33,332 bases of DNA from Catajapyx aquilonaris (taxonomy: Eukaryota): NCBI GenBank assembly GCA_000934665.2, contig JYFJ02001019.1, positions 62,001 through 95,332 on the forward strand, written 5' to 3'. The notes beneath the pieces were generated by a model, which saw only the letters and a program-made list of their open reading frames with translations, was not told the origin of the DNA and ran no database searches. Shown here piece by piece: positions 823-31,728 of the stretch. Within the stretch, counting starts at the first letter, position 1; each line of letters opens with the position of its first letter. The position numbers and the translations under genes are program-made.

Positions 823-1283
823 GTAATTTTCACACGGCAGGTTCACCCATATGCCCAGCTCTGCAAGCAGTACAGTGCCTGCCCGGAAGATGGTGTATTT
901 GGAATTTGTTTTGAAGATGAGGGCCTTCGCAGAGCATATGATTCCCTCCTAGAGCAGCGCTGCCGTTGCTGCCGTCACCGCCCTACCTTCCCATCTTTCA
1001 AGTTATTACAAGAACATGTTCGGAGGGAGCATGAGCTCTTCTACTGTGACCTATGTGTGGAACATCTGCGCATATTTACCTTTGAGAGGAGGTGTTATTC
1101 CAGAAAGGATCTGGCCAGGCATAGGAGGAAGGGAGACCCAGATGACACTTCCCACCGAGGTCACCCAAATTGTGAATTCTGTGACCGTCGGTACATAGAT
1201 TCAGACGAGCTCTATCGGCACTTGAGAAAGGACCACCTGTTTTGCCACTTTTGTGATGCGGATGGGTCACACAAATTCTACAG
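823..1283 (+). CDS. ZNF598: ZNF598 internal exon (C2H2 zinc-finger region)
   Basis: Acceptor ctcctttgtgtAG (821-822), donor GTatat at 1284; encodes VIFTRQ...HELFYCDLCVEHLRIFTFERRCYSRKDLARH...HLFCHFCDADGSHKFY. Confidence 0.93.
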
Positions 1284-4200
1284 GTATATCCACATTCCAT
1301 CATATGTAGTAATGAGCCAGTTTAAGTAGAAGGATTCTGGACTAGTTATCCTGAGTTAGGAATCGCCTGAGTAATGTCACATTATAAGAGTGGGAAGGAT
1401 AATGATCACCATTTACATAGGGTACGGTATTCCAACTATCTGGGTCATGTTAGTTGTGCGATTTCGCTGAAGTTGTCATTTTTGTGTAGCATTGTATGCC
1501 CCAATCCAGGTGCTCAGTATTCCCAGGAGGGGTCAAATACAGCAGCTTCTATGCAGTACACTTGGGCACCTCAATTGGGGTGCAACAAAAAAAATAACAG
1601 CTTGGAGAAAATTTTTCCATAACTAAAAGAACCCACATAATTGGAACACACTGTATATCACCGTGGATGTGGCTTTGGTGCTCTGAAATGAAACTGTAGC
1701 CAGGGAAAAGAAATTTAACAGCCTTGTAGTCAGCCCAACTCACAGACAGACTTTGAATGCAATTTTACTGACATCCACAGTGAATGGCCACCAATTATTT
1801 TTATTATTCTTTTTTGTGTAGAGCCCTCCAAATATTTACAAAAAATATGAGATGGCACCCCCCCAATTAGGGTGAAGTTCTTATGCATGTTTCACATGAG
1901 AGATGAAGTTTTCAGTGACTGCTCTTTGCAGTTCCTACGACTACCTGCGAGAGCACTTCCGAGACACCCACTATCTCTGTGAAGATGGTGAATGCAGGAT
2001 GGAAGCCTTCACCTCAGTCTTCCGCACTGAGATTGATCTCAAGGGTAAGTAGGGCCTATGCCCATCACTGATTGGATCACAAAAGGTTAACTGTGGGACT
2101 CACATGTGCGTGTTCATACTTATAAATGGCTGTAAAGGGATGAGGCGTATCATTGCATCTTTCAAATTTTAAATTCAATTCTACCACTATTGATTAGCAA
2201 TATTTAATTATACTTCCATATCGTAACGTTGGCAAAGTAAAAAGTTGTGCCTAGTTTAAAAGCATGTATCATCACTAGACTTTTCTCGGCAGCTCATAAA
2301 GCATCAACCCATTCTAAGAATTTGGGTAAGGCAGCAGCGAAGCAAGCGAGGTTATTGGAGCTAGAATTCACTTTGGCTCCAAGAAGAGGTGAGGAAGAGG
2401 AGCGTAGAGGAGGGCGGAAAGGGCACAGGCGTGACCCTGGAGTTGATGTTGAAGCTGAACCACTACCAGGAGGGCTGGACACAGCAAGCCAGAAGGACTT
2501 TCCAACTCTACTAGGTGGTGGAGCAGGGAGGGCCCTTGTCCCCCAAGGAAGCATGGCTCACAGATTAGCTGTCAATAATGGGTTAACTGTTAGAACATAT
2601 CGGCCCAGAGCTAAAGCCGCCTTGGATGAAGAAGATTTCCCAAGCTTAGGGGCCAGTGTTGGTGCAAATCCCAGGCCAAATCCTCCACCTCAGCAGCGCC
2701 CAAATGTCTCCATACGTGTAAGTTCCTCAGGGGCTAAACCAACACAAGTTGCTCCTAGGGTTACCCGGATGACTTCAACTAATAACATCCGCTGGGCCGA
2801 AACTGAAGATTTTCCGGCACTTGGGCCAGGGACCGGGCGCTCCAGTGTTTGGACACCACACACAGGGACAGGAGCCTGGAGTGGAGGTGGACCTGAGTCA
2901 TCTTGTCCAAAAAATGAACCTGTCCAACCCACACCTGAACCAGAAAAAACGAAGCTGACCTCCTTAGCAGTGACACCAACATTTACAGCACTTACTAAGA
3001 GCAAGAAGAAAGCAAGTTCGGTAATGATTCCAGTTGGAGGTGCCAACTACTCCAATGGGGTCAAGAAGGTTGAGTCGGTGGATCCAGATCCAGAGCCTCC
3101 ACCCCAGGCAGCAAAATCAGAGCTAAAAGTTGGGTCACTCTCAAGAGCTAAGGGACCACCCCCTGGTTTTGCATCTGGGCAGAACCCACCACCTGGGTTT
3201 TCACCAAAGGATTCCCCAGAGCACTCGTACGTCCAGCCAGTAGACTTTCCCCAACGGAATAGGGATTTGGTGACTCTGATTAAAAGTTTGCTGGATGAGG
3301 CGGCATTTGGGCGTTTCCGGAGCCTCTCTGGAAAGTTCCGAGGCGGACAGCTGTCAGCAGAAGAATACTACTGGCAGTGTGTGGATGTGTTGGGGTATGA
3401 GTCATTTCGGCAAGTTTTCCAGGAGCTGCTGGTACTTCTACCTGATATCTCCAGGCAACAGGTTAGATTTTCAGTTTCACAATTTTTTGTATTGAATAAA
3501 CACTATTGTAGTTTCCATTGCCAAACTAGGGAAAAAGCAGAGGCACATTAGTATTAGTTTAATTTCTTTTGTGCAGAAAGTGTAGCTATCTCAGTAGATG
3601 GCTGCATTACTGTGACATGATTGAAAAAGGAAATTGCAGGTGTAAACGTGGCTCCCAATGGCTGTGGCCCAACATATTTGCTTTGAAATTCCTGAACTGG
3701 ATTTTCTACATGACATCAGGTTTATATTAGCATTTTCTTTGGATTATTAAGGTGTGTTTACATATGAGTCATTTGATTGTGCCATGTCATCGCTAAACGA
3801 TAACAACGCTGAGTAACCAGAATTGTTTGAGGCATATCTCGATTGTTACTTTCACCTCAAACAACATCAGTAACTCTTGTTACTCAGCGTTATCATCACT
3901 CGGTGAAGACATCGCGTGATCAAATTGCCCACATGTAAACACACCTTTATTCAGCATTTTCTCTGTTGCAGGGAGGTTAAGGCATGTGAAGAGATCGTTT
4001 ATACAGTCGAAATTTGTGTTTGAGGATCCTCAAGTCCCTTGTGTGAAATGGCGTAGAATTTGCACATAACCTAAGCACATCTTCCCATATTCTTTAAATC
4101 TTCTCTAGGTTACTTATAATACCTAATATGATGTAAATTAAATGATATGTGAGTAATTTTAGACTGGATTGTATTGCTTAGCATGTGGCTAATTCAAATT

Positions 4201-5544: not shown

Positions 5545-6182
5545 ATTGTGCTTCACCATTTGCCGCCCTGAATTTTTCAACCAACCTTTGTATGCAGAAC
5601 CCCACATTATTGTGCTAATTTTGGCCAATCCAAATTTCAACTGTACATGGTGAAATTTGTAACATGGACCTGGCAACATGTTGGATTTATGAAATATGTC
5701 AAGAGTGTCAAATCAAGACCTTAAAAAATAATGCACTTTGCATGTTTTATTTATGCATGCAACACCAATGTATCAAGTCATTTACCTTGCAGTGCTTCTG
5801 TTAAAGAGCATGCAAAGTGTCAAACAACCTTTAATTTTTCTAGGGTCACCATGTTTTTCAAGGATGTTCCCATGTTTACCCCCAATTTTCCCTACCAGCA
5901 GTAAAAATAAAAATTTCAACCACAAATATATTCCTACTGTCAAACGATTTTATTATCACGTAGTTACATTTCAACACAGTTCCCTTCCTTCCCCATCTCT
6001 CGTCAGCAGAGTTGAATGTCCCTCTTGAAATCCATCTTAATTTTTGCCCCCGAAACAGCCCCACCCTATACACACACACACAAATTCCCCAACAAAGAGT
6101 GCAATTCCCCAGTCCACTGGCTATAATGAACGTGACTGTCGCATTTTCTACACCCAATATCCATACTTGTCATTCAATGATT

Positions 6183-6321
6183 TTATCTCTTCTCCCCACT
6201 CCCTCCTTCCCTCTCCCTCCTCCTTTCTTTTGAATGAGATCGCCTTCTGCTGCTCCCATGGGACCTGGATGACCTGTGACCCCGGTCTCCACGCTCCCTG
6301 CTATGCGAGCGGTGATGGGAC
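6183..6321 (-). CDS. LUC7L: LUC7 last coding exon (RS tail)
   Basis: Acceptor aatttttgcAG; phase 2 matches exon 5; SHHRSHSRERGDR...GEKR then TAA. Confidence 0.85.
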
Positions 6322-9300
6322 CTGCAAAAATTATAGCAAATGTTAAACATGTATAGTTCTGGAATAATTACAAACTGCATTGGCAGAAGGGACCACTTTC
6401 ACAGCCCAGTCCTGAAGTACTTGACTGAATTTTTTCTAGGTGAAGTCGAATTCTGGCAACGTCCATGTGGGCAACCAACCTTTTCCGTGCCTATAACACT
6501 GGTTCCCAAACTTTTTTGGTCGCTGCCCACCTAATGAGCCATTTACACCTCGTCACCTCCTTACTGAGAGCTGCAAAAATCATGCTACACGATATATGTA
6601 TTGGTTTTTTTTTACGTACTGTGCTCTTGCTCCTCATTTCACAAGATCATTATTTTATAGTTTACAAAAAAATGTAAATCTCGCGGCCCATAGTTTGGGA
6701 ACCACTGGCCTATAAGCATCTGGGAACCAACCTGTTTTGGGATGGCCCAAACATCCCAGTGCAACCAGAGAAATAATTTAAAGATAGTCAGCTTTTGGAA
6801 GCAATATTCCTCGTGAAACTTAATCGACATTGGGAATGCAGAAGACACTTGCGAACTTGGGCTGACTATGCCTTGCCATTGCAACTTCACGTGTGTCACT
6901 ATGTCACAAGAGTCTCTGACATTCACAATTGTACATACAAGTGGGTGTTAAACCCTCTCCAAGCTACCCAACTGTTCCACCTACTTCTACAAGGCAGCTT
7001 CAAGGCAGCCACTGTGAAGATCGCAAAGGAATAATGGCCAACTACACCTGCAGTATCCTTGTAGAATATGGCCAATTCAATATTCCTTGGGCTCTCCCTA
7101 CACATCACTTGATTACAAACCTAGGGGAGCGGCTCCTAGATCGGCGCCTCTTTTCCCGTGAGGATGATCTAGATGACTTGGAGTGCCTGGATCGTGAATG
7201 GGATCTTGATCGAGACCTATGGCCTGAGCCTCCTCTCCTACCCCCATGGGATCCTTGCCCTCCCCCTCTGCCACTTCCATCACCTGGAGATCCACCTCTC
7301 CATTCTTCACCCCCACCACCAACTGCTCCTCCCATTGGCCCACCCATTACACCAGCCCTCCCACCCACATCATCCCTATCTCGATCATCCCTCTTCTTGC
7401 GACGGCGCTCCTCCACATTCTTCTGCAAGCAAAGAGAGTTAAAAAGATGCCATTAGTCTCATGTCACAGGGAAGAAGAATCAAGAAAATTCACGTCAGCA
7501 AGCCCTTTACGACTCCATTCTCTACCACAGCGTTTCTCAACATTTTTACCCTTGCGGAACCCCTGAAATAATATTCTCAGGAAATGAGGAAATCTCAGGA
7601 AACACCTTCAAAAAATTATTATATTATACTTTAAAATAATTTACATGTGATCAGCCTATGCAACACTATTTCTCGCGGAACGCCGGTTGAGAAACGCTGC
7701 TCTAGCATCTCCACAGCCATGTGCCAAATTGGCTTTCCCTCCCAAGCTAAACCAGAATTACAAGGGCGAATCAGAAAGTAATTGAAAACCTTTTTAATTC
7801 ATAAGTTTCACTAGAAAAACTGAAATTGTGATATACATATGAAAGGGCAAGTCTTTCTGTAATTTTAGACAAAATCACCATACACTTTGGTGCATTTGTC
7901 CCAGAGGGACACTAGTTTTCCCATACCGATGCAGAAAAAAGCGTCAGGCTGGGTGGGAAACCATTGGGGGATGGCCTCTTTCACTTCCTTGATGGCCTGC
8001 CTGGTGCTTCTTCATTGGTCTAAAGAGATGGTAGACCATTAAAACCACCTCTTTGGACCAAAAAAGAAGCACCTGGCAGGTCAGAACATCAGCGACATCG
8101 AGGAAGTGAAAGAGGCCATCCCCCACTGGCTTCCCACCCAGTCCGACACTTTTTTTCTGCAGGGGTATGGAAAAACTAGTGTCCTGCTGAGACAAATGCA
8201 CCCAAATGTATGGTGACTCTGTCTAAAATTAGAGAAAGACTTGTCCTTTTATATGTACAGGGTGTATCAGAAGTCAGTGCCTATTTTTATTTCCAAATAA
8301 CTTTCCAAAGGCAGTGAAACATGATTCAAAATGTGCAGGAAATCATGAGAATTTATCTGGGTGACACCTCATTGACACCTTGCTACTGTGTCGAGCACAG
8401 CTTGACACTTCTTCCGCGGGGGCGCTGTTAGCAGGTGCAGGTGGACACGTCTTTGTATGGTGGCGCTGATAACGCAGAGAGCGAGAGAGGTGGTCCAACA
8501 TTTTGTTCACAGCTGACCCTGTTATCAGCGCCACCACGGCAAGACGTGTCAACCTGTGCCTGATAACAGCGCCCTGCAGAAGAAGTGTCAAGCTGCACCC
8601 GACACAGTAGCAAGGTGTCACTGAGGTATCACCCAGATAAATTCTCATGATTTCCCGCACATTTTCAATCATGTTTCACTTCCGTAGGTGTCCTCGTTGT
8701 AAATGTATTCAGAAATAAAAATACGCCCCGACTTCTGATACACCCTGTATATCTCAATTGCAGTTTTTCTGGTGAAACTTCCGAATTTAAAAAGTTTTCA
8801 ATTACCTTCTGATTCGCCCTCGTATATTCTTGAAACATTTTAACTCACCTTGCATCATTATTTTATTGGTGCCTTTTTTCATGTAATACCAGTAACCAAT
8901 AGCTCTCGCGCCCATATTATATTTCACCTGATTGCAAGTTCAAGTAAGATTCAAGTGATTAATTATGCAAAGATCATGTATATGTGATCAAATCCAACAT
9001 TACAAGTACTGGATGTCATACTCCATTCTATGTTACTGTTCAGGTGTTGAGGTTTAAAGGTACACAGAACACAATGCATGATAACTCTACATGATGATAT
9101 GGGAGTTATGAAATAGTTGCACACCCCTACTTTTAACAGTAATGCGTCTGAACAGGTTCGGTAATTTTGGCATGAAAGATCTGTAATCCTTTAGGGACAT
9201 GGTTTAGAACTAATACTCACCTGCAGTTCTGCAAGCTTCTCCCTGATCTTGATGAACCCAAGATGCAGCTTCCCTCCAAAATGATCGGCCAGCCTACGAT

Positions 9301-12300
9301 CATTATCATGAATGCCGAGGTAAGCTGAGCAGACCTCACACACTCGTAGCTTCTGCTGCTGGTAGCTGGACGCAGGCATAGAGTTTCTGTACTCCTGCTC
9401 AGCTGCAGCCTTCCTCTTCCTCAAATCCTCAATCTCCTCCATGAGCCGCATGCTCTCCTCAACATGTCCTTCAGCACCCAGCTGCTCGGCCCGGGCCAGC
9501 TTCTTCCCGATCTGCTCTGCCAGCTCATGCACCTTGTTGGCCTTCGCTGCCACCTCTGCAGACAACTCCTCTTGGGTTTCAGCCAGTCGCTTCTTGGCCA
9601 ATTCAGTGCGCCGGTCACAGTCAGCTATGAATGCCTGAAGGTGCTCCATTGCCTGATTAACGAAACACAGTGAAGTTGGTACTTTCCATGAACAGGCTTC
9701 ATGTGAAAATGCCCCTAACCAACACATCACCAGCATGGGCTAGTCCCAAGCAGTTAATGGAAACAAACTGACTATTCCAGAAATTGTTGTTTGAAAAAAA
9801 ACCGTCCCATTATCTGACATGCAGTGACACCATCCTAGGCGGTCCCAGGGGCTGATAAAATCAAGTTTTCTTATATCTGTAAAGGACACTTAGGTGCAGT
9901 GCCGGACAGGAATAGTGAAGTACCGGTGGTCACCAGTATTTCACCATTCCTGTCTGGCACTGCACATTACTTGCCATGTAAAATGCAACTTACCTTTTAA
10001 TAATTTAAGCACTATCCACCTTAGAATACTTGACCTTTCAGTACAGAATATTTGGTATGAAAAACAAACTGTGAATAAAATGTTCATTATTTAAAAACTT
10101 ATTTTGCATGGTTTTCTGTACAAAATAAACAAAATCATAAATCAAAATCATAAAAAGGCGCTCTCATGCTATACCGGAAGAGTACTGCACACACTACTGT
10201 ACAGTAGTACACTACTTTGTACAGTACCCTACCGGTATAGCATGAGAGTGCCTGCTTCAGTGCAACCCGCAAGGCTAAAAAGCCGTTCAACCCGGTTCAA
10301 CCCACTACTGCACCTGCCAGTCCGAGCCAGTCAATTCGAACAGAAAGGATGTGACTTCATGTCATACGGCCATCATAAATAAATTGATTACTGCAGTATT
10401 TCTAATTGTTTTATAAAACCAGCCGGGGTTGTCGCCACCTACGATTTTTCCCACGCCCTCCCCGTGACTCTGAAACACCCTGTATAATTAGTCGACAACA
10501 CTTCTGGCCAACTTCGACCTCATCACCTATCAGGAGTCAGCATTTTTTGATTGAGTCTTAAACCCTAATTTTTAAAGCACATGTCAATGTCTCCGGATAT
10601 TGTTACTCACATCTATGTCATAGTAGTAGTCCTTCTCACTGCTGGCCTGCTCATAGTCAGCTCTCAAAGCCAAGTCGTGGATCTTGGGACAGTCTCCTAG
10701 GTCCATGCGCTGCCAAGGGGTGGAATTACAACAACACATGGTACATGCATGCTATCAGACTTCACTGTTATGTTGTTTTTCAAGTCACTAACATCTTCTT
10801 GCAAGGAATAAGCACAGCCCAGTCTTTTATGAATTACATTTCACTATTATTCCAAGCCAAGAGTTTGCCTCCTGTACCGATATACAGTACAGCATGTAAC
10901 CAGAATAAGTTTGTTGTAGCAGGTGTCTTTCATGCTGCTTATAAGGCCAGGAGTGCACCAGCACAAGTTTTGCTTGAAACCAGCAATGGGGCAACCCATC
11001 CTGAGAGTGTCTAAACTCCTTTATTCTATGGTGCTCACACGCCAGATGTTTCGGCCAAAAAGTGAAGCACCTGACTTGATACTGATGTCAATACACACTG
11101 TAAAGTTATGCTCATGTGTGAAGTTCAGAATAAACTTTCCATATAAGGCTTACATAATTGTAATCTGAATTTTAACCTAAACTATCTACAACAATTAACA
11201 AAATATGCAATGGAGCCTGTGCTGATCACTATAATTACGTGGCCAAATAAATTCAGCTAAGTTTCCAATTCCAGCATTCTCTGGGTTGGTATTTTATCCC
11301 ATGATCGGCAACATAGTGACATGTGATGATGGGTAGCTTATTCCTTGATTCAACGACAGTTTGCTACTCTCAATCCCCTCTCCCACAACAACTGGAAATT
11401 AAATTTTAAGAACAAAGTATATGTATATAAAAAAAGACGAGGACACAAAGTGTGTTTGAAAATTCCATTAAAAAGGTGTCTGAATAAGTTTCAGTCAGGT
11501 AGAGCAGCAAGACTTGCCGTGCCTGAGTTTTGGGAGCAGAGCAGGCAGACACACACTCAAGCAGGGCAGACAGATATGGGGAGTGTAGGCTCTTTACAAT
11601 TGTTGGTAATGATTGTTCACAGATCCTACAACAAACATCTGGCTAGAAAAAATAAACCCAAATTTTTGAGCCAACTCCCTATCCCATCCCGGGCACAGAC
11701 ACCAAAATTTCCAATGTTCACCACATTGCCAACCATGATGCTGCATTTAAAACAATTCCGATGATAACTCCAGCAGAAGTTGCTCAACTCTTCATAAGTG
11801 GTCTTATAGAACTGTCACACAGACACTGTAGAATGTACATGATACTAGAAAGGGTTGTACTATTCAAGTTGGTAGAGAATCATCAGGTTGCTTTTCTTGC
11901 AGAGCATCTTGGTTGACCCACACGTTCCTGTCTTCCTTCCCCACCTCCCCATCCAACAAGCCCTTCCAATCTTCAAACACAACTTGAACTCTGTAATTGT
12001 GCAACTCACGGTCGGTACGTACCCACAACACGCCCGACACTCATTAACCGGTCCACTTCTCCATTAAGCGAAGGACGGTTTGCTCCTCATCATCATGAAT
12101 CCATTGTGTGATTTGGTCCTCACAGCCAACCTCCCCAACCATCCCAGATATACGTACCCAACAATGCTTCCCTCCTTTGGACAAACTCTCTCACTCAGTG
12201 TGCAAGACACTGGTACGTACCCATACACCTCTTGACTCTGCATACGTGTGCCTCTTCAAAACAAGCACTCACACTCTCTCTCACATTCATACATATGTAC

Positions 12301-15300
12301 AACACATTCACTACGTACCAATTATTTCTCTACCGCCTGTTTTGTGTCTTTAAAAATTAACATATCCAGATTCACTTGTAGAGTGACAAGGAGAATGACA
12401 CTCACAGCTTTCAATCATTCATCCCCACCCTTCTGAGTAATACATGAAAAGAAATATGAGGCCAGCCACATGAGTCCATCAAAAGCATTGAACAGAAAGA
12501 GGCGTGCAATTAATGTATGATTGCCATTATTCTTACTGGCCTCTGAACCAAGGTCTTCTGCAGAATCAGGTTAAATCTCAGCTTTGAAAAATGTATTAAT
12601 GGTTCCCTCCCACCACATACCCAACAGGCCATTTTCTTAGTATACGTTTCCATTTCACAATACTGTACTTACCAAATTTGGGACCCTTCATGAATCGATA
12701 ATCAGCAACCCCAAATAGAGAAGACTATTTTCTTTTTTCTTTGGCGTTAATATACGTACAAGTCCACGCCACGACCTATACTTACAGAATCTTTCCCACC
12801 CCAGACACAAACAAATTGACCACCAACTCTGAAAGAGGAGCCAAAATGTCAGACTTTCCAGGCTCATGACACATACCTCACCCCAACACACACTTTCAGC
12901 CCACACTGTTGCTCCTAATCCTCTGCTACCAACTCTCTCTCTCTGGTCATATCAGGAAACCTACATCAAATCTAGTCCCAATTCTGTACTCAAAGTAATG
13001 TAATACACTGAACCTGAATCAGATCTCGTTCGCAATAATTTCCCAACTACATGACAATTCACTCCCCTTGCAAAGTGATCAAATACCAAATCCCCACATT
13101 CATCAATTGTAGATTCCTATATAATCCATAATTCACAGACATGTATCAACTGAAGCGATCTACTATTGCATCCCTTTTGGATTGCATCAACTGCATGGAC
13201 TGCAAAATAATAGATTCCTCCTAGGCTAATTTTTGTTACAAGCCACTATAATTTTTAACAGACTTCATTGATAATGATATCAGTTACATAAAAAAGGGAC
13301 TCTGTTTAATCCTATTGTGATACTGCTAAATTTTACCTTTGAAATTCACACATACGTAATTTTAAATATTAAACTGCCAGTAATGCTAGCCACCTTCAAT
13401 AATTGGTTTCAATATGAGAGATGACAACTGATTTTTCAAGTAGTCGTGTATTGTTTGCTATGAGTTACAATTTTAATTCAATTATGCAACGCTGGTTGTA
13501 CTGTGTGATGCTCCTTCAAACGGGGTGACACAATGGGATATGGGAAACCAAACTTCTTTAAATGATAGTTTCAGTGAACAATCAGTGGTCTAAAATCAGT
13601 AATTTCTACCAATAATAATCGAAAAATTGAAATATCTTCCATGCTAGTCACACCAGTGCAGTGGCTATTTTAATTTTTTAAAAATTTCAAGCTGTAATTA
13701 CAGATTTTTGAAATACCGGAATTCATAGGACAAAACTACGCTTCTGCCTTGGATCTACAGGGTGGTCGGTAAATGGCGCACAAGCTTCAGGTAGCGAGAT
13801 TACTTGTGAAAAACCAGTACATGGTAGTGAAGGTCATATTGCTCTACGATGCCTGGTTAGGGTTCACAAGCTCTCCAAAGTTTGGACCAAATCATGATGT
13901 CACATCCGCCCGCGAAATTCAAACACTACCGTATCGCTGCCGTACGTGGTGTGTTGCTAGGCGTTGCCGTGTTGACACCCCCCACATTTCCATCCGACAA
14001 TGGAACGGTATAAACTTGCCGGGATGTTGCCAGGCATTGCCATACCTTCGTCGCCGCGTGCCTGGTAACATCCCTGCGAGTTTATACGGTTCCATTGTTG
14101 GGTGAACATGAGGGGGATGTCAACATGGCAACCCCTGGCAACGAACCACAGACAGTAGCAATATGGTAGTGTTTGAATTTCGCGGGTGGATGTGATGTCA
14201 TGATTTGGCCCAAACTTTGGAGGCCTCGTGAGCCCTAACCAATATGACCTTCACTTCCATATACTGGTTTTTCACAAGGTATCTCGCTACCTGAAGCTTG
14301 TGCGCCATTTACCGACCACCCTGTATATTTTTTAAAAATCTCCACTAAAAATTATCATGCTCCACCAAAAGAAGCACACCTTTGAAATTTATTTATGAAC
14401 CCTTCACGAACCACAAAATGAAACAAAATGCGCCATATCATTCTCCCGCAAAAATATTAATGTACATGTGTGGGCTTGAAAAGATGAGTGCAAGAGGTTG
14501 GTGCAGGGTAGGCTCCAATCGAATTATTATTCTCCAGGCATAAGCCTGAAGTTTTGATATGTTCCAGGGTCAAAGTGTCAACTTACCGTTGAGGACAGGA
14601 TCTCATGTGGGCAGCATCCCAGCAGAAAGCTCTTGCACACACGTGGATCAGAAAACTTCACCTGAAACCGGTTGTTCTCTCCTGAAATTGAAAAACAATT
14701 TAGCTCCATTGCATTGCTCTAAATATTACAGCCTAACTCACTCACACTATCAATTTAAATCCTAATGGAATTAGTGTTTTCATCTCCATTAATAAGTAAA
14801 ATGCATTCATAAAAACCTGTATATTCCTTTATGCCAAATAACCCTACCAGACATCCTGAGCATGAACCTGGCTAGCACATTATTCTGACTGCTTCAAGTG
14901 CAAGCAACAATGCTGACAAAATTCAGTCTCAAAGCGCGTACGCTATTCTCCCCTGTCTTAACTTAATTATGCCTACCCTATCCTAATGCAACAAGCATAT
15001 TAAAGGTGGTTTACTACCCACCTGTTGTTATTTCAAATCTGTGCCATGTCACAGTTTCTTGTATTGGCAGCATGATCAGTAAATACCGGCATTTCCAACC
15101 CTTATTCCCTTCCCTCAACACGTTCCAGAGCATAATTTATATTGAGCTAATATTGCAACTAGAGCATTACATCAATTCTACGATTGGCCTGGGCTATACG
15201 TATATAACACCTTGGAGGGTGAGCTCACAAGTGCATCAGTGTCTGCTTAGCCTGAAAATTAATTCTCAAGTCCCTACTTGAAAGCAAGAGGTAAAACCTG

Positions 15301-18012
15301 GGGCCAAACCTTTGAGGCGAGGGTTCAGATAGCAATGTGAATTTTAACACAGTCCTACATACACATGGCCTGGCAGGGTTGAACCAAAATGTCGGAGTCG
15401 AGTCCGGATTTTTAGTCGCGACAAAACCCTGAAATAGGCACTTAAGAGCACTCTCTAGGCTCGGCAACCCATTGTTGCGGGGAGCCCGTCGCGGCCCGGC
15501 CCGTGAGTTTGACACTTCTTCCTCTCACTGTCACGGTCGCAAATATGGAGGTATCGGCATGAAACTGGAGTATCTGGACGCAAAAGAGTTGCACTTTGAG
15601 ATGGTGGGTTTATTTTTCTCCCGGGGCGATATTTGCGGTCGCCGCGGCCAGGTACAGTTTTTTTATTTTGACCCGCAATCACTCCTTTCCATGTCGGTAC
15701 CAGTGAGATTCGAGACCATCACGAGGTTTTTACGCCGAATTACCGTAAGTGTGTGAAAGGGCACGAGTGTGGCAGTCTTGGTTTGGCCAAACTTTGGGAC
15801 GAAAAATACCCCATGAACAATAAGAACTCGCACGAAGAACGCGACGATCTGGCAGCGCCGCGCTGACTGCCAGCTCCGTAACCACGGCGACGGGGATAAG
15901 GTAGAGCGCTAATTATTAGAATTAGGGGCCTAGTCTAGTGACCCAGGGTAAGCTTGCCCAGGGGCAATCACCATGGAAGCATATGAAAAAGGATAGCAGT
16001 AAACAACCAGTTACCCCAGGGGGCAAGCTACCCCGGGTCACCAGACTATATACCTTAATGGCTGGCCACTGGCGGCGATCGAGTCATGTACCAAGATGGT
16101 AGCGCCTTACCTAGCGGCCAATTCTGAAACATTTGGGTCGACTCCGATTGACTGGAGTAGAACAGGAGGCATTTAAGACTCCAGCCAATTGGAGTGGACC
16201 AACATGGTTCAGAATTGACTGCTAGGTAATACCATCTTGGTACATGACTCGATCGCCGTGGCCACCACCCCTTGGTAGGGGAGAACAGCTAAGCTCACAG
16301 GTGTAGCAATGTATAATGTATACAAGTGACTGGGGCTGCTCTGAACTCTACCACTTACAGCGCATTTCCACTTGCACAGTTTGTTACCAAATATTTTCTA
16401 GATTATCCTCTGATTGGAACCACCTTCCGGCTCATACGTGTCACAGCAACATGATTCGTATTACTTCTTAACCATTTTGATCCTTTCAAAAGCACATAAA
16501 ATAGTCTGCAAAAACACCAAACATACCTCTGAAGGAATAGGTCTGGAATAGGCCCAAAAAGTCTCGGAAATTGCTTCAGAAAGTTCAAAAACAACACCAC
16601 CACCATCACGACATTACCCTATAAGGGGTAGTCAGCAATGAAGGGAGACACTAGTTAACCCCACATATTAACTAAATTAAAACTTGTCAAAATAAAACTA
16701 TAAACTACCTGTCCCATCCCCTCCCTCTATACCTCCATCCTCCTCTATTTCTCTTCCATGAACTTTTTCCATGGTGACATGGAAAAAGTTCAAAAACCAT
16801 CCCAAAATAGGCATGAAACGGCTCAAAATGCTAGAATTGGCAGAATAGTTCCTAAAACCATAAAATAGGCAATTTGAGGCACTATAAAACATACACTTTC
16901 CACATCCTGCACTTATGAACTACAGTAAAACTTCTACAGAAGATTCGAGTTAGAGAAGTTTGGATTTTTTAAAACACACAACTCTATAAGGAAGCCTGCC
17001 TTTATATCCAGCGACGAAAGGTGTTCAATAGTTAGAAATAACCATCATGTAACACTTACAATGTTTCTCGTTGATTTGTTGTTAAAAAAAACTCAGTTAC
17101 GGACATTTGCCTACTCTTAGATTCAAGAATTCAATTGTCACAATCGAGTCAAACACTTCTTTCGGTACGTCTGGTAGATGGAGATCAGGAAATTGAACCT
17201 TTCTGTACATGTGGCCTACTCTCTATACCCTTTGGCTGGGAAATGAGAAAATTTTCCGTACTCGCCAACATGAACTTCGACTTAGGGAGACTGAAAATGC
17301 ATTGAAATCCCATCATAAGGACCTTCCAGCACTTATGGAAATTCGAGTTAGGGAAGTTTATTTCCTGTTATTTTACATTGTGAGCAACCAAGCTCATCAT
17401 TTTCTTCAACTTATAGAGAACTTCCAACTTGGGGAAGTTCGACTTGCAGAAGTTTTACTGTACATATATCTCTTCACAAAACCATCCCAACTGCAAAGGA
17501 ACTAAATAGGCATTTGCCTAAAAATCCGGACTTTAGTCGTGAGCAACAAACACGTCTTTTTGCATGAACTACTGTAAGAGTTATAGCTAATTTACAACGG
17601 CAAATCTCCTTTGGATGGATACTATTCCGTGGACATCCATTCTGCTTGCTACTAATTTGGAGCATTAAATTCAATGCAGGTTGCACTTTACAAGTAATTT
17701 CACCATAGGCAATAAAATTCAAATTGAATCCAAAGCAAATAGAATTCCGTAACATATAGGGCAACATTCCTACAAATGCAATTAAAATTAAACTACGCGT
17801 GCAAATGAGAAGGCAATGGTTAAGTGAGGGTTGGTCTCAACGAACCATGTGGCACCGTACATACAAATGTATCAACACTGCCCATACGAGGCCCCTCCCG
17901 CTAGGCCTAGTTGGGAAAGGCAGTGATATGTAAGTGTTCGATCCCACGTACCGTTCCGGCCCGTGCCCATGAGCTGGTCAAGCATAGCCCTGATCTGGTC
18001 GTGGGCCGACAT
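6183..18012 (-). CDS. LUC7L: Luc7-like U1 snRNP protein (LUC7L/LUC7L2 type), 375 aa; complement(join(6183..6321,7121..7422,9221..9652,10611..10709,14587..14681,17952..18012))
   Basis: The spliced frame (1128 nt) reads MSAHDQIRAMLDQLMGTGRNG-ENNRFQVKFSDPRVCKSFLLGCCPHEILSST-RMDLGDCPKIHDLALRADYE...KLRVCEVCSAYLGIHDNDRRLADHFGGKLHLGF...RS domain. Both LUC7 zinc fingers are present and all introns are GT-AG. Confidence 0.96.
6497..6707. mobile_element. hAT (Charlie-like) MITE
   Basis: TIR cactggttcccaaact / agtttgggaaccactg; perfect 8-bp TSD gcctataa (6489-6496, 6708-6715). Confidence 0.88.
7121..7422 (-). CDS. LUC7L: LUC7 coding exon 5 (G-rich and RS region)
   Basis: Acceptor ctctttgcttgcAG, donor TAG/GTTTGT; KNVEERRRKK...RSRSRSP. 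Confidence 0.88.
7528..7699. mobile_element. hAT MITE
   Basis: TIR cagcgtttctcaac / gttgagaaacgctg; 8-bp TSD ctctacca / ctctagca. Confidence 0.85.
7761..8822. mobile_element. Palindromic mariner-derived element (host of 8258-8747)
   Basis: TIR caagggcgaatcagaaagtaattgaaaac / gttttcaattaccttctgattcgccctcg, TA flanks; ~230-bp arms are complementary once the inner insertion is removed. Confidence 0.85.
8258..8747. mobile_element. Tc1/mariner-type palindromic MITE nested in 7761-8822
   Basis: TIR cagggtgtatcagaagtc / gacttctgatacaccctg; TA duplication; long complementary arms. Confidence 0.88.
9221..9652 (-). CDS. LUC7L: LUC7 coding exon 4 (coiled coil and second zinc finger)
   Basis: Lies inside ORF 9191..9736; acceptor ttcgttaatcAG, donor CAG/GTGAGT; 432 nt. 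Confidence 0.95.
9891..10316. mobile_element. Possible degenerate DNA-transposon MITE
   Basis: Short inverted ends aggtgcagt / actgcacct; no convincing TSD. Confidence 0.35.
10611..10709 (-). CDS. LUC7L: LUC7 coding exon 3
   Basis: Acceptor ccccttggcAG, donor GAT/GTGAGT; 99 nt; RMDLGDCPKIHDLALRADYEQASSEKDYYYDID. Confidence 0.93.
12004..12876 (-). promoter_or_regulatory. Cluster of 12 5'-splice-site-like hexamers in LUC7 intron 2 (putative splicing-regulatory/decoy array)
   Basis: Sense-strand GTGAGT/GTAAGT/GTACGT/GTATGT with the G of GT at 12876, 12785, 12759, 12672, 12620, 12405, 12318, 12272, 12220, 12157, 12022 and 12009. Confidence 0.65.
13758..14323. mobile_element. Tc1/mariner-type palindromic MITE
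   Basis: Perfect ~43-bp TIR cagggtggtcggtaaatggcgcacaagcttcaggtagcgagat; TA flanks; the whole element folds back imperfectly. Confidence 0.92.
14587..14681 (-). CDS. LUC7L: LUC7 coding exon 2
   Basis: Acceptor tttttcaatttcAG, donor ACG/GTAAGT; 95 nt; VCKSFLLGCCPH. Confidence 0.93.
15931..16048. mobile_element. Small MITE / inverted repeat
   Basis: Arms tagtctagtgacccagggtaagcttgccc / gggcaagctaccccgggtcaccagacta. Confidence 0.7.
16063..16264. repeat. ~200-bp foldback palindrome (MITE-like)
   Basis: cggcgatcgagtcatgtaccaagatggta / taccatcttggtacatgactcgatcgccg; complementarity continues to a short central spacer near 16160-16175. Confidence 0.8.
16593..16784 (-). mobile_element. Very short 3'-end retrocopy related to the RTE element at 18934
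   Basis: ~16600-16714 matches ~18943-19055; 13-bp TSD aaagttcaaaaac (16580-16592, 16785-16797). Confidence 0.75.
16923..17460. mobile_element. pogo/Tigger-type MITE
   Basis: TIR cagtaaaacttct / agaagttttactg with TA flanks; internal repeats of ttcgagttag(a/g)gaag. Confidence 0.8.
17952..18012 (-). CDS. LUC7L: LUC7 coding exon 1
   Basis: gcagccATG start; MSAHDQIRAMLDQLMGTGRN; donor ACG/GTACGT; 61 nt. Confidence 0.93.
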
Positions 18013-20067: not shown

Positions 20068-20987
20068 CGAGGGGTGTTATATAAGTTCGTGGTTTCAAGT
20101 AGACATACGCGAGGCATGACAAAGAAACTATTTTATTTCTCAACATAGTCCCCACACCGGTCAATACACTTGTCCATCTTCGTGGCAACTTCTCCAAACC
20201 GCTCCGGTAGAAGGAAGAATGTCACCCCACCAAGACGTCCTCCACAGCTGCCTTGACCTCTTCGTCACTCCCATGGAGTCGACCCCGTAGGTGTTTCTTC
20301 ATGTTCGGGAACAGGTAGAGGTACCCAGGTTTCATCCTGTGTGACCAGACAAGCGTAAAATCCTTCTGCATCAGCATTCAGCAGGTGCAAATTTGATTGC
20401 GACATCTCCCGACGCACCGCCTTCTGTTCTGGCGACAACATTCGGGGTACCCATCGTGCTGACACCTTCCACAGGCGCAGGTGGTCATGTAGTATGGTGT
20501 GGATGAAAATTGTTGAGATGCCCACCACCTCAGCAAGGTACCTGATAGTCAGTCTTCGGTCTCCCATCACTAGTTCCTCCACTTTGGCCACATTTTCTTC
20601 AGTGGTGGAACACACGGGTCTTCCGGAGCGGGGGTCGTCTTCTAGGCTGTCTCGGCCTTGTTTGGAGAGGGCAGTCCACTTCTGGATCATGCTGTATGAT
20701 GGTGCATCGCCAGCCAATGTATCCTTCATGTCCTCAAAGATGTCCTTGGCACCCATTCCCTTTGCCACCAGGTACTGGATGACCGCGCGATGTGCGATGT
20801 TCGCCATCTTCACAATATGCTGCACACCCTTTCACATCCGAATTATTTCTGAACCCAAGGACTTTGACACCTATGTCAATTGGGTGGATATAGGGGTTTG
20901 AAGGGTGGCTCGATTTAATGGCGCTGTTTAGCTTCCGCATTTGCTTCTCCTTCTAGGCGAAACCACGAACTTATATAACACCCCTCG
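20068..20987 (-). mobile_element. Mariner transposon, internal-deletion derivative (920 bp)
   Basis: Perfect 29-bp TIR cgaggggtgttatataagttcgtggtttc; TA duplication; removing the element rejoins the RTE frame (..RNKDLS..). Confidence 0.95.
20265..20807 (-). pseudogene. Truncated mariner transposase (DNA-binding domains, WVPR motif and first catalytic Asp only)
   Basis: MANIAHRAVIQYL...LEDDPRSGRP...DRRLTIRYLA...KVSARWVPRMLS...LVTQDETWV, then a jump out of frame into the C-terminal YLFPNMKKHLRG..SDEEVKAAV segment. Confidence 0.88.
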
Positions 20988-22715: not shown

Positions 22716-25700
22716 CTGCAACAAAAAATATAAACACCAGTTACAATTTTGTCTACATGCTGTACGTGCTGAAGTATGAAGAGTAGGTCCCTGTTCATTG
22801 TAAACCCACCCTTAATAATTATATGAAGTGGAATGAGGAATACTTCACTCCTGCCAGAAGGGTTTAGCACATTTTAAAAATGGCTCCAACTAGTGACCTC
22901 GTATACCTGTCAATAAAACTCGGCAATTCAAATTGGCATAATCTAGAAAGTTCATAGCCAATTAGGGCCTCAAATGATCCATCCAAAGGTCAACAGAAAA
23001 TAGATTTCATAGCACCTGAGAGTAACTGTGCAAAAAGTAACTTATTAAAAATTCAAAATGCTACAGACAATATTCAGTTTACTACACAGGAGCTAAACTG
23101 GCAGTTTTGTACTATTCCCTCATGAGTATCATTATATGACATTAACGTTACGGTGATGCCATCCAGGATATATTCCCCTGGCAGTTGGCACCAGTGGGCA
23201 GGGATTAACATATGACATCATTTCCACTCACCTGCAAAGGTGTGAATGCAACAGATGAGGCTGTTCCAGACACATGCTTCTTGACACTAGTTGATCCTCC
23301 CCACACTTGCTGCTGTCTCTGAAGATTCTTCTGCAGTGCTTTTGAAATCCTGACCTTGGTTTTCTCATCAATCTGTGCCATTCTGACTTTCCCTGCACCA
23401 GCTTTACCCAGCTGACCCCTGCTGTATCCGAGGTCAGCTTGGTAGGCATCATCTTCAATCTCTCCAAAGCTGATCCGGTTTGCCTGTTTGCGAAGCTCCG
23501 TAACGGCATACCGCTCTTTCATCTTCCTCACTCTTCGACCACCTCTTTTCTTACGTGGTGGATCAACAGGTTTGGGAAGAGGTTTGACTGCTTTTACTGG
23601 TGGTGGTTCTTGGAGCTTGTCCAGCTTCTTCTCAATCTCTTCCCTCATAATCTTTCCAACACTCCCATCGCTGCACTCATGAAATGCATCAACACGTGCA
23701 GCCATAGTACACTTATTGGCAACTAGACGTGCTGCTTTTCGATGCATATCAGAAGGAGTGCCCTGAACTATATGAGAATGGTACACAAATCCAGTGTGTG
23801 GTAGGACTGCAGCATGGTTGAACCCAGATGGAGCTTTCCGTTGGGCGCCAAGGACAAGGACGTTGCATGCAGGCATCTTGGATAGCTTGGTCAGTCCACC
23901 AGCCACTCCTGAATGAGGTTCAGAAAACAAGAACAATTAAACACTGAAACAGGATCATGAACCTGCCTCAGTCACCCCTGGGCAGTTCTTGCCATGCCCC
24001 TCCCACTGGAAGTGGTCTTTGCCCTGGTCAGGCTGGGCAAAGACAACCAACAAGTTATCCTTCTCCCTGGCAGGTCAGAGAAAATCTCACCTTGTCTCAT
24101 CTTGTAACAATAACGTGCATGTCATCTACATATTCCATTATTTAATTCTGGTGGTGGAACTCAGCAAGAAAACTGGCATGATGGCATCTACAGTATATCC
24201 ATTGGTCACAGATCTGTGATCCGAAATCACAGATAGGTAGCCTGCTACCTAAGCATGTTGAAACCATTGCAAGCAAATGCTTCTATTTCCGAGTTGCAAA
24301 AACATGATCCTCAGTCTCATTATTTTGTATTATTCAAATTCATTATTAGGGAGATGACATGATGCTGGAAAATGGACACTTGAGCCCAGGGGCCATTTAT
24401 ACAGTTCTGGGAAATCTGGACTCATTTCAGAAGTGATCTGGTTCACAAAATGAAGCATTTATGATGAATGGATGATCATTGGACCATTCACTGGATCAGG
24501 TCTCCTCCCTGCATTGTCCCCAGCTATTGTCTTTGCCAAATTTCAATAACTCTCCAGCAACACACAAATGATTTGCCCTCATCACCATTGGAAATCACTA
24601 ATTGGAAAGACCCTAGCAAAAATGTTACATCATGAGGCTGAAAGATAGTTTTCCTTGCCAGCCTTCCTCTCGCCATGGTGATACAACATACTTCACTCAC
24701 TTGACATAGCCTGGTTTAAATCCAGTTGCTCTAGATCCCAACCTATGGGTCATGAAGCCTTTCTCAGGGGGTTGCACAGTTATTTTTACTGGCAATAAAT
24801 TCCGTCGAAAAATTTCACCAGGATTTAAACACTTAATTACATGTTTTAATATGTATACACTAGCCTACATCAATCTTGCTGGGGGGGTTTGTTGCCGGAT
24901 ACTTGACCATTATAAAAGGGGGTCATGACCCGAAATACGTTGGGAACCACTGATCTATATGAAGTCCAGGTCAGAGACGGTTGAAAATGCAATGTAATGA
25001 ACCTGCTCTGGAACAAGTTTCTTCGGTGGTGTGTAAAAATTGCCCCATTGTAAGCACATTTACGTAGATAAATACAAAGAAAAACTGGTAATGATCCTCA
25101 TGACCCAATTACCGTATTACCTCTCATAAACCAGCATGCTGAAATAACCCGGGGATGGCCGGAATGCCGCAATAGCCGAGGTAGATTTCTGTAATTTTGA
25201 TTCTTGCCAAATTATTTGGAATGCTTCTGGTACCGTTCTAAAATAATGTTATAATGAAAATGGGCGAGTATACAGGCTGAGAGAATATGCAAGTTCTGTC
25301 CAGTGCATATAAAAAATGTAGTGTGTGAGACAAATTCCATCATTAGCCTGCTTTGACAGGGGAACCCCCTGCTCCAACATACTGTTTAAGGGCCGGTTGC
25401 ACCGGTTGTGGTATATGGGAAGGTATATTTTTTATTTATTTATTTATTTTTTATTTAATTTACCCCGTGATCGTGGCTCATTTTGGGGGACAAAACCACA
25501 TGTGTATTACATACAGATTAGGTATGTGTGCATTAATGCTCATTTGTATTTACAATTTTGATCACGTTTTGAAAAAAGGTGAACAATTTATGAACATCTG
25601 GTTTTTGACTATTGGTGAAGAGCATCAAGATCTGGTCAGGTGGAAATTTAGGTATATCAAACAGGTGTTTCCGCCTTGGAGGTATGAACAAGGGGCACTC

Positions 25701-30836: not shown

Positions 30837-31728
30837 GTTCTACGACTGATTCAGGAACAACTGTGCACGCCAGACAGGACGGAGACAAATCGACAATTCA
30901 GTCGAGATCAACAACACGTAAACGAATCACGACGAATACTAACCAAGGCTATTTCTTGCGAATGCGAATGTTGAAGCATATCTGCCGCAGGGAGCGCTAG
31001 TGGGTAAGGGTACAGTTCGTGCGGACTGGTGGGCGCCGCCATAGCTGCCAGAGGGTGTCACTTCCTCCATGCGACTGCAGCTCCCTCCAGGCCAGACCAG
31101 GCCTCACTCTCCGGCTCGCTCTCCGGCTCGCTCTCCAGGCAAGACGACGTGACTGGAGTGGAGAACCTCCTGCCTCCAGTGGACGGCATGAGAGAAGCGC
31201 ACCCAGTGGAGTGCCCCCGTCCCTCATCCCTGCCCCGGTGGTGATTGAAGCCACTGCCGACTCCGCTCGTAGTTCTTCGGATGCCAGAAATATGACAGCT
31301 ACCCTAGGACATCACACCAACAGATCCAGACTAGGTGACCACACTCTCAGCACGTGAGCACTGGGGGAAGTGCACGTGTCATTGCGTGCTCCGAAGGTCA
31401 AGGTTGCACGCATTGTTATTACAAGGCCACAGAGCACCACAACTTTAATGTTATGACTGCAAGTTTAGGGAGTGATTTCAGACGTCCAGTTGGTCTTAGA
31501 CGGGTGCGGGGGAATCAACTCTTAATAGGATAGTCAAGTTTTGTCCTTTCCATGCACTAACCACTGCAGAAACCCAAACTTTCGGATGATTAGGTGCTTG
31601 CAAACACATGTTGTCATGTGTGCTTTATAATTTTCGATGTAAGTTTCCTTATGAAAGACATTCTATGAGTGGCTTTGCTGCATTTTTGTTTCTCTAAGAC
31701 ATCATGCTTTATTTGAATAGGGACACTA

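Follow-up and report, generated by a model that had tools for sequence, protein, structure and literature searches.

The question raised by this locus is why one intron of a gene for a U1-associated splicing factor should be crowded with motifs that resemble 5' splice sites (5'SS). The stretch analysed, hereafter the window, comprises 33,332 nt of the Catajapyx aquilonaris contig JYFJ02001019.1 (assembly GCA_000934665.2, positions 62,001 to 95,332, forward strand), and the motifs lie on its minus strand within intron 2 of a LUC7L-type gene. LUC7 proteins have recently been shown to divide 5' splice sites into two classes. The array is here read as the probable 5'SS cluster of an unproductive-splicing switch, acting by a poison exon or by partial intron retention in the pre-mRNA of this factor. 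The array, its twelve sites (upstream triplet in lower case; Balance score as defined in PMC11842720) and the domain enclosing them are as follows.

12004..12876, minus strand: donor-like array of 12 GT[AG][ACT]GT hexamers, in intron 2 of the LUC7L-type gene
12871..12876, minus strand: gag/GTATGT, alone among the sites in preceding the 12828 acceptor and in having exonic AG
12780..12785, minus strand: tct/GTAAGTAT, 43 nt past the 12828 acceptor, frame-shifting if used, Balance +3
12754..12759, minus strand: ctt/GTACGTAT, 69 nt past the 12828 acceptor, the sole frame-keeping choice
12667..12672, minus strand: ttg/GTAAGTAC, forming the most stable U1 duplex in the array, at -10.5 kcal/mol
12615..12620, minus strand: tgg/GTATGTGG, by motif match
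12400..12405, minus strand: gct/GTGAGTGT, uncut in an RNA contig
12313..12318, minus strand: ttg/GTACGTAG, uncut in an RNA contig
12267..12272, minus strand: agt/GTGAGTGC, uncut in an RNA contig
12215..12220, minus strand: tgg/GTACGTAC, uncut in an RNA contig
12152..12157, minus strand: tgg/GTACGTAT, uncut in an RNA contig
12017..12022, minus strand: tgg/GTACGTAC, uncut in an RNA contig
12004..12009, minus strand: acc/GTGAGTTG, uncut in an RNA contig
11700..13186, minus strand: sense-strand domain rich in G and poor in C (G 0.23-0.35, C 0.11-0.18) enclosing the array, by base composition

The original prediction, made from the letters of the window, had listed these 12 sites with their upstream triplets, had called them enriched and free of tandem repetition, and had read them as a sensor of LUC7-loaded U1. 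All 12 sites and triplets were recovered on the minus strand at the predicted G-of-GT positions, and exonic AG is missing from 11 of them, as claimed. The enrichment also held, since 5000 dinucleotide-preserving shuffles of 12004-12879 (876 bases) gave 1.85 hexamers on average (standard deviation 1.35, maximum 8) and none reached the 12 observed. When the whole window was shuffled in blocks and the largest count per 873-nt window was taken over both strands, this maximum averaged 4.2 and never exceeded 9, with none of 1000 shuffles reaching 12. Elsewhere the minus strand carries 39 such hexamers in 32 kb (0-4 per kb); in the array region itself, two lie on the plus strand. A measure that makes no use of the hexamer list, in which the stretch from -3 to +8 was paired with the U1 5' end (rough, as the register was left free), placed 12 GT sites with a duplex of -7 kcal/mol or better in the array region, against 2.24 per 876 nt elsewhere and none on its plus strand. 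Within intron 2, the sequence on one side of the array holds 1 hexamer (1.6 expected) and that on the other side none (1.4 expected); introns 3, 4 and 5 of the gene are at expectation, and intron 1 holds 8 against 3.8.

The array is not built of repeat units. Tandem Repeats Finder returned nothing relevant, no second copy of the array was found in the window, and the sole repeated element detected by the repeat search was a 12-nt word, GGTACGTACCCA, present in three copies (two exact, one at 83%). Searching six open reading frames (ORFs) of the array region against Pfam gave no family at the gathering threshold and one sub-threshold match, to DUF3848 (13.2 bits, cut-off 30), and Rfam gave only sub-threshold matches over 10500-14800. 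A tandem repeat or transposon fragment was rejected, as repeat units, copies in the window and Pfam coding remnants were all absent.

Five of the twelve sites share one longer word, (G)GTACGTA; GTACGT itself occurs 5 times against 0.13 expected, and the other three hexamers together 7 times against about 1.7. The shorter ACGTA is found 7 times against 0.7 expected, with two copies outside any GT hexamer. At 0.56, the observed/expected CpG ratio of the array is close to the 0.54 of the other introns in the gene. The array is thus no CpG island, and 5 of its 20 CpGs fall in GTACGT. The label 'right-handed' given to the sites stands in so far as they match on the intron side (Balance 0 to +3, mean +1.5), with exon-side consensus matches at 11 of 36 positions, about background; it is partly circular, since the hexamers were chosen with +5G and +6T. 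Positions outside the hexamer also favour U1 pairing, since -1G and +7A are each present in 7 of 12 sites (P 0.027 and P 0.003, respectively). At -5.8 to -10.5 kcal/mol, the duplexes of 11 of the 12 sites fall within the span set by the real donors of the gene, which is -6.2 to -14.1 kcal/mol.

The identity of the host gene was upheld by the exon 4 peptide, which matches Pfam LUC7 with an E value of 3.7e-46 and is of the LUC7L type. It shares 94% identity with Luc7-like proteins of odonate, mayfly, stick-insect, termite and orthopteran origin and 92% with those of decapods; the LUC7 protein of C. aquilonaris itself was absent from the matches of the protein search with exon 4. The exons, together with the features of intron 2 that are seen in RNA, are arranged in transcript order as follows.

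17952..18012, minus strand: LUC7 exon 1, coding part with ATG at 18012, donor acg/GTACGTGG (joint 14680/17951, cut +1, and frame)
14587..14681, minus strand: LUC7 exon 2, donor acg/GTAAGTTG, ending in phase 0 (RNA-contig joints, translation)
10710..14586, minus strand: LUC7 intron 2 (exon joints, translation)
12829..12853, minus strand: alternative 3' splice site, pyrimidine tract and AG (tctgacattttggctcctctttcag), with exon '2a' beginning at 12828 (joint 12828/14587)
12688..12690, minus strand: TGA in frame with exon 2 via the 12828 acceptor, codon 99 (translation)
10710..12593, minus strand: 3' part of intron 2 kept in RNA (record 3, joined to spliced exons 3-6)
10611..10709, minus strand: LUC7 exon 3 (RMDLGDC...), acceptor ...ccccttggcag, donor gat/GTGAGTAA (RNA-contig joints, translation)
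9221..9652, minus strand: LUC7 exon 4 (RNA-contig joints, Pfam LUC7)
7121..7422, minus strand: LUC7 exon 5, Gly-rich and arginine/serine (RS) region (RNA-contig joints, translation)
5983..6321, minus strand: LUC7 exon 6, to the contig end, stop codon at 6183-6185 (RNA-contig joints, translation)

The exon 1 donor being acg/GTACGT, this hexamer works as a donor in this species. The productive donors of exons 1, 2 and 3 (17951, 14586 and 10610) all lack exonic AG, because these exons end in fixed codons, and the same donors lack it in every genomic relative examined among L032-L076 (acg, atg, act, gat or gac before the cut); the first three introns of the gene thus open with intron-side-only donors.

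The RNA evidence was drawn from contigs of one public run, X1, whose recorded kind is unknown. The contigs belong to the same species by 4 differences in 1984 bases, and they skip introns 1, 3, 4 and 5 with GT..AG ends, which shows them to be RNA-derived; as assembled contigs they give no measure of levels, transcript starts or ends. One joint, 12828/14587, connects exon 2 to a strong acceptor inside intron 2 with GT..AG ends at a contig depth of 10.8. All but one of the 12 motifs come after this acceptor, at +43, +69, +156 and +208 nt and then seven further within 820 nt. With a pyrimidine share of 0.77 it ranks second among the six acceptors of the gene, that of exon 3 having 0.68. Record 3, a contig of 3059 nt, covers 10610-12593 contiguously with 4 other letters and is spliced at introns 3, 4 and 5, whereas seven array sites stay uncut in it. 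Zero-depth bins occur in introns 1 and 3 of the same X1 table, indicating that the retention of 10710-12593 is not a general unspliced background. The bins of 11072-12472 at 80% likeness show a depth of exactly 24, which equals that of record 3 spanning them. A canonical joint of exon 2 to exon 3, and any piece over 12594-12799, were absent among the rows listed, and nothing is concluded from their absence.

The reading frame set by the 12828 acceptor depends on the donor that follows. Use of 12785 would give a 43-nt exon with a shifted frame, use of 12759 a 69-nt exon that stays open, and all later donors include the TGA at 12688-12690. The interpretation in the original prediction is partly supported: unproductive processing is seen in the 12828 joint, the retained 10710-12593 and the in-frame stop, and the motif excess before exon 3 recurs in relatives, as given below; titration of LUC7-loaded U1, feedback by LUC7, binding of U1 and LUC7, exon definition and the fate of the RNA are what we infer. 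Two other classes of element were considered and rejected. A recursive splice site at 12828 is contradicted by the sequence there, cag/AGTTGG, in which the AG is not directly followed by GTAAGT; and a U11 snRNP-binding splicing enhancer (snRNP, small nuclear ribonucleoprotein) is contradicted by the seven matches in the window to TATCCTT, which we take to be the U12-type 5'SS motif, none of them lying in 10710-14586.

Relatives of the gene were assessed at 76 loci from metagenome contigs, scanned with an arthropod LUC7 protein alignment, with exons mapped by the window's peptides. Eleven lineages were each represented by one locus, misses counted, and the intron before exon 3 was scored, or at most 4 kb upstream where exon 2 lay off the contig. 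On the sense strand these lineages carry 44 motifs where 19.03 are expected (Poisson P 7e-7), or 33 against 12.3 once the 4-kb termite flank is left out; on the antisense strand they carry 10. Other introns of the same loci carry 22 against 19.5 expected, and among 138 windows of 873 nt in their non-LUC7 flanks at least five sites were seen in one and at least six in none. The 44 sites resemble those of C. aquilonaris in character, with Balance of at least +1 in 43, exonic AG in 1 and +7A in 22. The original prediction had looked to orthologous introns for conservation, and what is found there is a recurring motif excess in the intron before exon 3, with no alignment to intron 2 of the window; the feature recurs, and single sites are conserved inside the termite-like and the cladoceran-like groups.

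Clusters were also seen, post hoc, in other 5' introns, such as L047 intron 3 (6283-7060; 6 against 0.55, three of them GTACGT), L019 intron 1 (945-1725; 5 against 0.84) and L042 intron 3 (280-820; 3 against 0.78), and the position of the cluster is not fixed among LUC7 introns. The clusters of L038, L074, L047 and L019 contain GTACGT alongside GTAAGT and GTGAGT, and GTACGT serves as the exon 2 donor in L074 (acg/GTACGTAT) and as the exon 1 donor in L039. In intron 2 of L074 (9357-10001), a segment of about 64 nt is also locally duplicated, and both copies open with tggGTACGTAAAAA, a word of the type found in the window's array.

Several individual loci give closer views of the same intron. 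Exons 2 and 3 are directly joined in most transcript-like contigs of relatives. The transcript-like contig L026, whose closest named protein is cladoceran, repeats the layout seen in the window. It carries exons 1 and 2, and exon 2 is joined at an internal acceptor to 326 nt that run up to the acceptor of exon 3, which is uncut; this insert holds two uncut GTAAGT, the first of which supplies an in-frame TAA. The genomic loci L050 and L052 align with this insert and have an acceptor, GGTGCAG/TGATGTT, exactly at the L026 junction; both GTAAGT of L026 lie in blocks conserved with these two loci, whose intron 2 is about 690 nt and whose adjacent exon blocks are about 45 nt apart. Three termite-like loci show 87-89% pairwise identity over 4 kb upstream of exon 3, within which a shared block, about 2.4-3.0 kb upstream of exon 3, has 88-100% three-way identical columns in most 100-column bins (66% in one bin with an indel), as compared with 92-95% in exon 3 and about 77% in the remainder. 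Four invariant sites lie in this block: gta/GTGAGT, cct/GTAAGT, ccc/GTGAGT and tct/GTAAGT. In the L031 transcript exons 3 and 4 are spliced, but the acceptor of exon 3 is uncut and the 958 nt preceding it are retained, holding 6 sites where 1.9 are expected. In the transcript-like L028 (124-202), about 77 nt of other sequence separate exon 1 from an exon 3 that is out of frame, and this is a further unproductive 5' isoform of a LUC7 gene. Among 19 aligned arthropod LUC7 proteins, five (P0002, P0009, P0029, P0034 and P0083) begin at the Met of RMDLGEC and two (P0018 and P0020) have other short N-termini before RMDLG; by their sequence, these short N-termini are compatible, indirectly, with widespread frame-breaking transcripts upstream of exon 3.

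In the proposed switch, U1 snRNP would bind the cluster, where a LUC7L-type protein is expected to aid its hold on intron-side-only sites. The bound U1 would then define an exon across the 12828 acceptor, so that exon 2 would be spliced to 12828 and not to exon 3. Either a donor of the cluster would be used, giving a poison exon, or the remaining 2.1 kb to exon 3 would be kept, and the frame would close early in both cases, at 12688-12690 or, for the 43-nt version, in exon 3. The resulting RNA would yield no LUC7 product and may be subject to nonsense-mediated decay or nuclear retention. More LUC7 would give more of the unproductive form, which amounts to negative feedback.

Known systems offer several comparisons. 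In U1-70K (SNRNP70), exon 7a depends on U1 binding and on three clustered cryptic 5'SS (Rosel-Hillgartner et al. 2013, PMC3798272). Both it and the present case have a U1-linked host gene and an intronic alternative 3' splice site closely followed by a cryptic 5'SS cluster, and acceptor use leads in both to a non-productive RNA with a stop. The intron region of U1-70K is conserved among relatives; for the LUC7 gene, recurrence of the feature in relatives is what was seen. They differ in that U1-70K has 3 sites and the LUC7 gene 11 downstream of the acceptor, and in that U1-70K is a core U1 protein sensed via U1C, in vertebrates and not in arthropods. U1 binding and site dependence in U1-70K come from mutation, pull-down and antisense oligonucleotides, whereas the LUC7 array is known from sequence and RNA contigs.

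Closest in family are human LUC7L and LUC7L2, which promote a stop-carrying exon in their own transcripts via right-handed 5'SS, a control abolished by a swap of handedness (Kenny et al. 2025, PMC11842720). The LUC7L premature termination codon (PTC) exon and LUC7L2 alternative exon 2 (AE2) share with the present case the family and a frame-stopping exon in the gene's own pre-mRNA, and the deciding right-handed 5'SS in the human case has a Balance of +3, as does the first donor after the 12828 acceptor, tct/GTAAGT. They differ in using one 5'SS instead of an array, and their regulation by the level of LUC7 was demonstrated with minigenes, whereas feedback in C. aquilonaris is deduced. The present exon is not classed as a homologue of the human exons, since those are an alternative second exon in the wording of PMC11842720, and the exon considered here lies between exons 2 and 3.

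The U11 snRNP-binding splicing enhancer consists of two U12-type 5'SS in tandem. Bound by its snRNP, this element of the U11-48K and U11/U12-65K genes switches on unproductive isoforms and can hold RNA in the nucleus (PMC5473595); that system and the array both place copies of a 5'SS that stay unspliced inside a gene for an snRNP component, and the minor spliceosome and U12-type motifs set the enhancer apart. Decoy exons and detained introns, such as SF3B1 intron 4 and OGT (PMC6097662, PMC7373989, PMC4281565), likewise combine cryptic sites in a long intron with its retention in the otherwise spliced RNA of an RNA-processing gene, unlike the LUC7 gene, which keeps solely the part downstream of the internal acceptor, the upstream part being removed. 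The ultraconserved pseudo-5'SS of Enox (PMC13100119) is another arthropod intronic 5'SS look-alike, U1-bound and unspliced, that sets the level of productive mRNA; unlike the array, it is a single site that silences the upstream exon. The original prediction had supposed that no such array was described for an invertebrate LUC7 gene. This is sustained for arthropods in the literature found (supplements unopened), and it does not extend to the principle, already published for human LUC7L/LUC7L2 (PMC11842720) and U1-70K (PMC3798272). What is notable is the size of the array, the half-spliced product and the arthropod LUC7 gene, and the self-limiting splicing principle is known.

A broader proposal, put forward tentatively and rather doubtful as it stands, is that arthropod LUC7L genes carry a multi-copy, intron-side-only 5'SS 'sensor' in one of the first three introns, with an origin separate from that of the vertebrate poison exon and with a widely varying copy number, from 2 in cladoceran-like and 4 in termite-like lineages to 12 in the present gene. 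Through exon definition the array might first activate the acceptor upstream of it; the half-spliced RNA might then stay in the nucleus because many U1 particles occupy sites that are not all usable, and copy number might set the gain of the feedback.

Some observations weigh against an unproductive-splicing switch. The 12828/14587 joint comes from one contig, has 29 letters on its shorter side and is flagged 'between: not known'; it also sits on a different contig from the 10710-12593 retention, so one molecule is not required. No donor joint from any of the 12 sites to the exon 3 acceptor appears among the 15 joints listed. Among the relatives, L073 (1 against 0.78) and L063 (1 against 0.49) are lineages without excess, as are the short termite-like contigs L061 (1 against 1.40), L068 (0) and L069 (1 against 1.48); intron 2 measures merely 57-79 nt in two clades, and blastn of the window's intron 2 against the 76 related loci gave only chance-level matches. 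Exonic AG is missing from the donors on the productive path as well, those of exons 1-3, so that LUC7 should aid both paths, and the outcome would be set by competition. In Drosophila S2 cells, knockdown of two LUC7 homologues had no effect on the U1-bound pseudo-5'SS of Enox (PMC13100119).

The first alternative is an internal promoter or first exon, with transcripts starting in intron 2 to encode an N-terminally shortened LUC7 from the Met of RMDLGDC and with the U1 sites serving promoter-proximal elongation or protection from early polyadenylation. Record 3 does begin inside the array, at 12593, and L031 begins in the intron and continues into exons 3-4; the five arthropod proteins starting at MDLGEC and the two with other short N-termini would suit such starts, and an AATAAA lies downstream of the array at 11025. 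The end of a contig is however no transcript start, exon 2 is joined to 12828, L026 carries exons 1-2 and the retained part on one contig, and the CpG ratio of the array is no higher than that of other introns, all of which make this explanation unlikely.

Under the second alternative, the array would be a neutral by-product of a G/T-rich, C-poor old intron, perhaps a decayed repeat with the GGTACGTA word, the 12828 acceptor would be splicing noise, and the retained RNA would be unfinished pre-mRNA. The location inside a 1.5-kb G-rich, C-poor domain, the one word that accounts for 5 of the 12 sites, the lack of alignment with relatives and the retained introns common in metatranscriptome contigs (L011, L019 and L042) fit this account. 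Composition-preserving dinucleotide shuffles nevertheless still yield 1.85 sites, and the flanks in intron 2 show no excess; the depth of 24 over 11072-12472 suggests no further contig and no expressed repeat family among the pieces listed, contig depth being a weak guide; the ORFs of the array region have no Pfam family at the gathering threshold; the excess recurs in the same intron of independent lineages; and introns 1 and 3 show zero-depth bins while 10710-12593 is covered. A neutral origin is accordingly held to be improbable. That (G)GTACGTA/ACGTA is the site of another factor (a DNA-binding protein on the palindromic TACGTA core, or an RNA-binding protein) and its donor likeness incidental is highly improbable, for, although ACGTA is enriched with two copies outside GT hexamers and the palindrome GGTACGTACC is present twice, GTACGT is a real donor here (exon 1), in L074 and in L039, recurs with GTAAGT and GTGAGT in the clusters of four relatives, and is missing from the array's other seven sites.

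The surroundings of the array were also recorded. Intron 2 holds a nested inverted repeat at 13753-14328, with arms 13854-14036/14059-14241 at 84% and 13753-13841/14240-14328 at 94%, over which X1 contigs pile up (13 at 14280); it looks like a repeated, hairpin-forming mobile element, and the hairpin has a sub-threshold mir-499-like Rfam match (29.8 bits, gathering 60). Parts of introns 1, 4 and 5 collect many X1 contigs, with a depth of up to 298 at 17143-17609. One neighbour of the LUC7 gene in the window is a Prp31 gene (Nop and Prp31_C domains; 23205-30839, minus strand), which makes with it a same-strand, head-to-tail pair of spliceosome genes; the other is ZNF598-like (PAH_ZNF598; 823-3551, plus strand). 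Between LUC7 and Prp31 are an RVT_1 ORF of 470 aa (25533-26945, minus strand) and an ORF with a sub-threshold HTH_32 match (20265-20831, minus strand), both probably mobile-element remains. The single N of the window is at 27935, within a run of G.

The probable unproductive-splicing switch in the LUC7 gene bears on annotation and on the reading of splice sites. LUC7 gene models that start at MDLGEC may derive from unproductive transcripts. A natural array of a dozen sites is a strong and easily mutated substrate for the reading of intron-side-only sites by LUC7-loaded U1. Self-sensing of snRNPs by splice-site copies, as in U1-70K and U11-48K/65K, would with this array take in a further U1 factor and reach the arthropods, and the number of sites is suggested to act as an evolvable control of gain.

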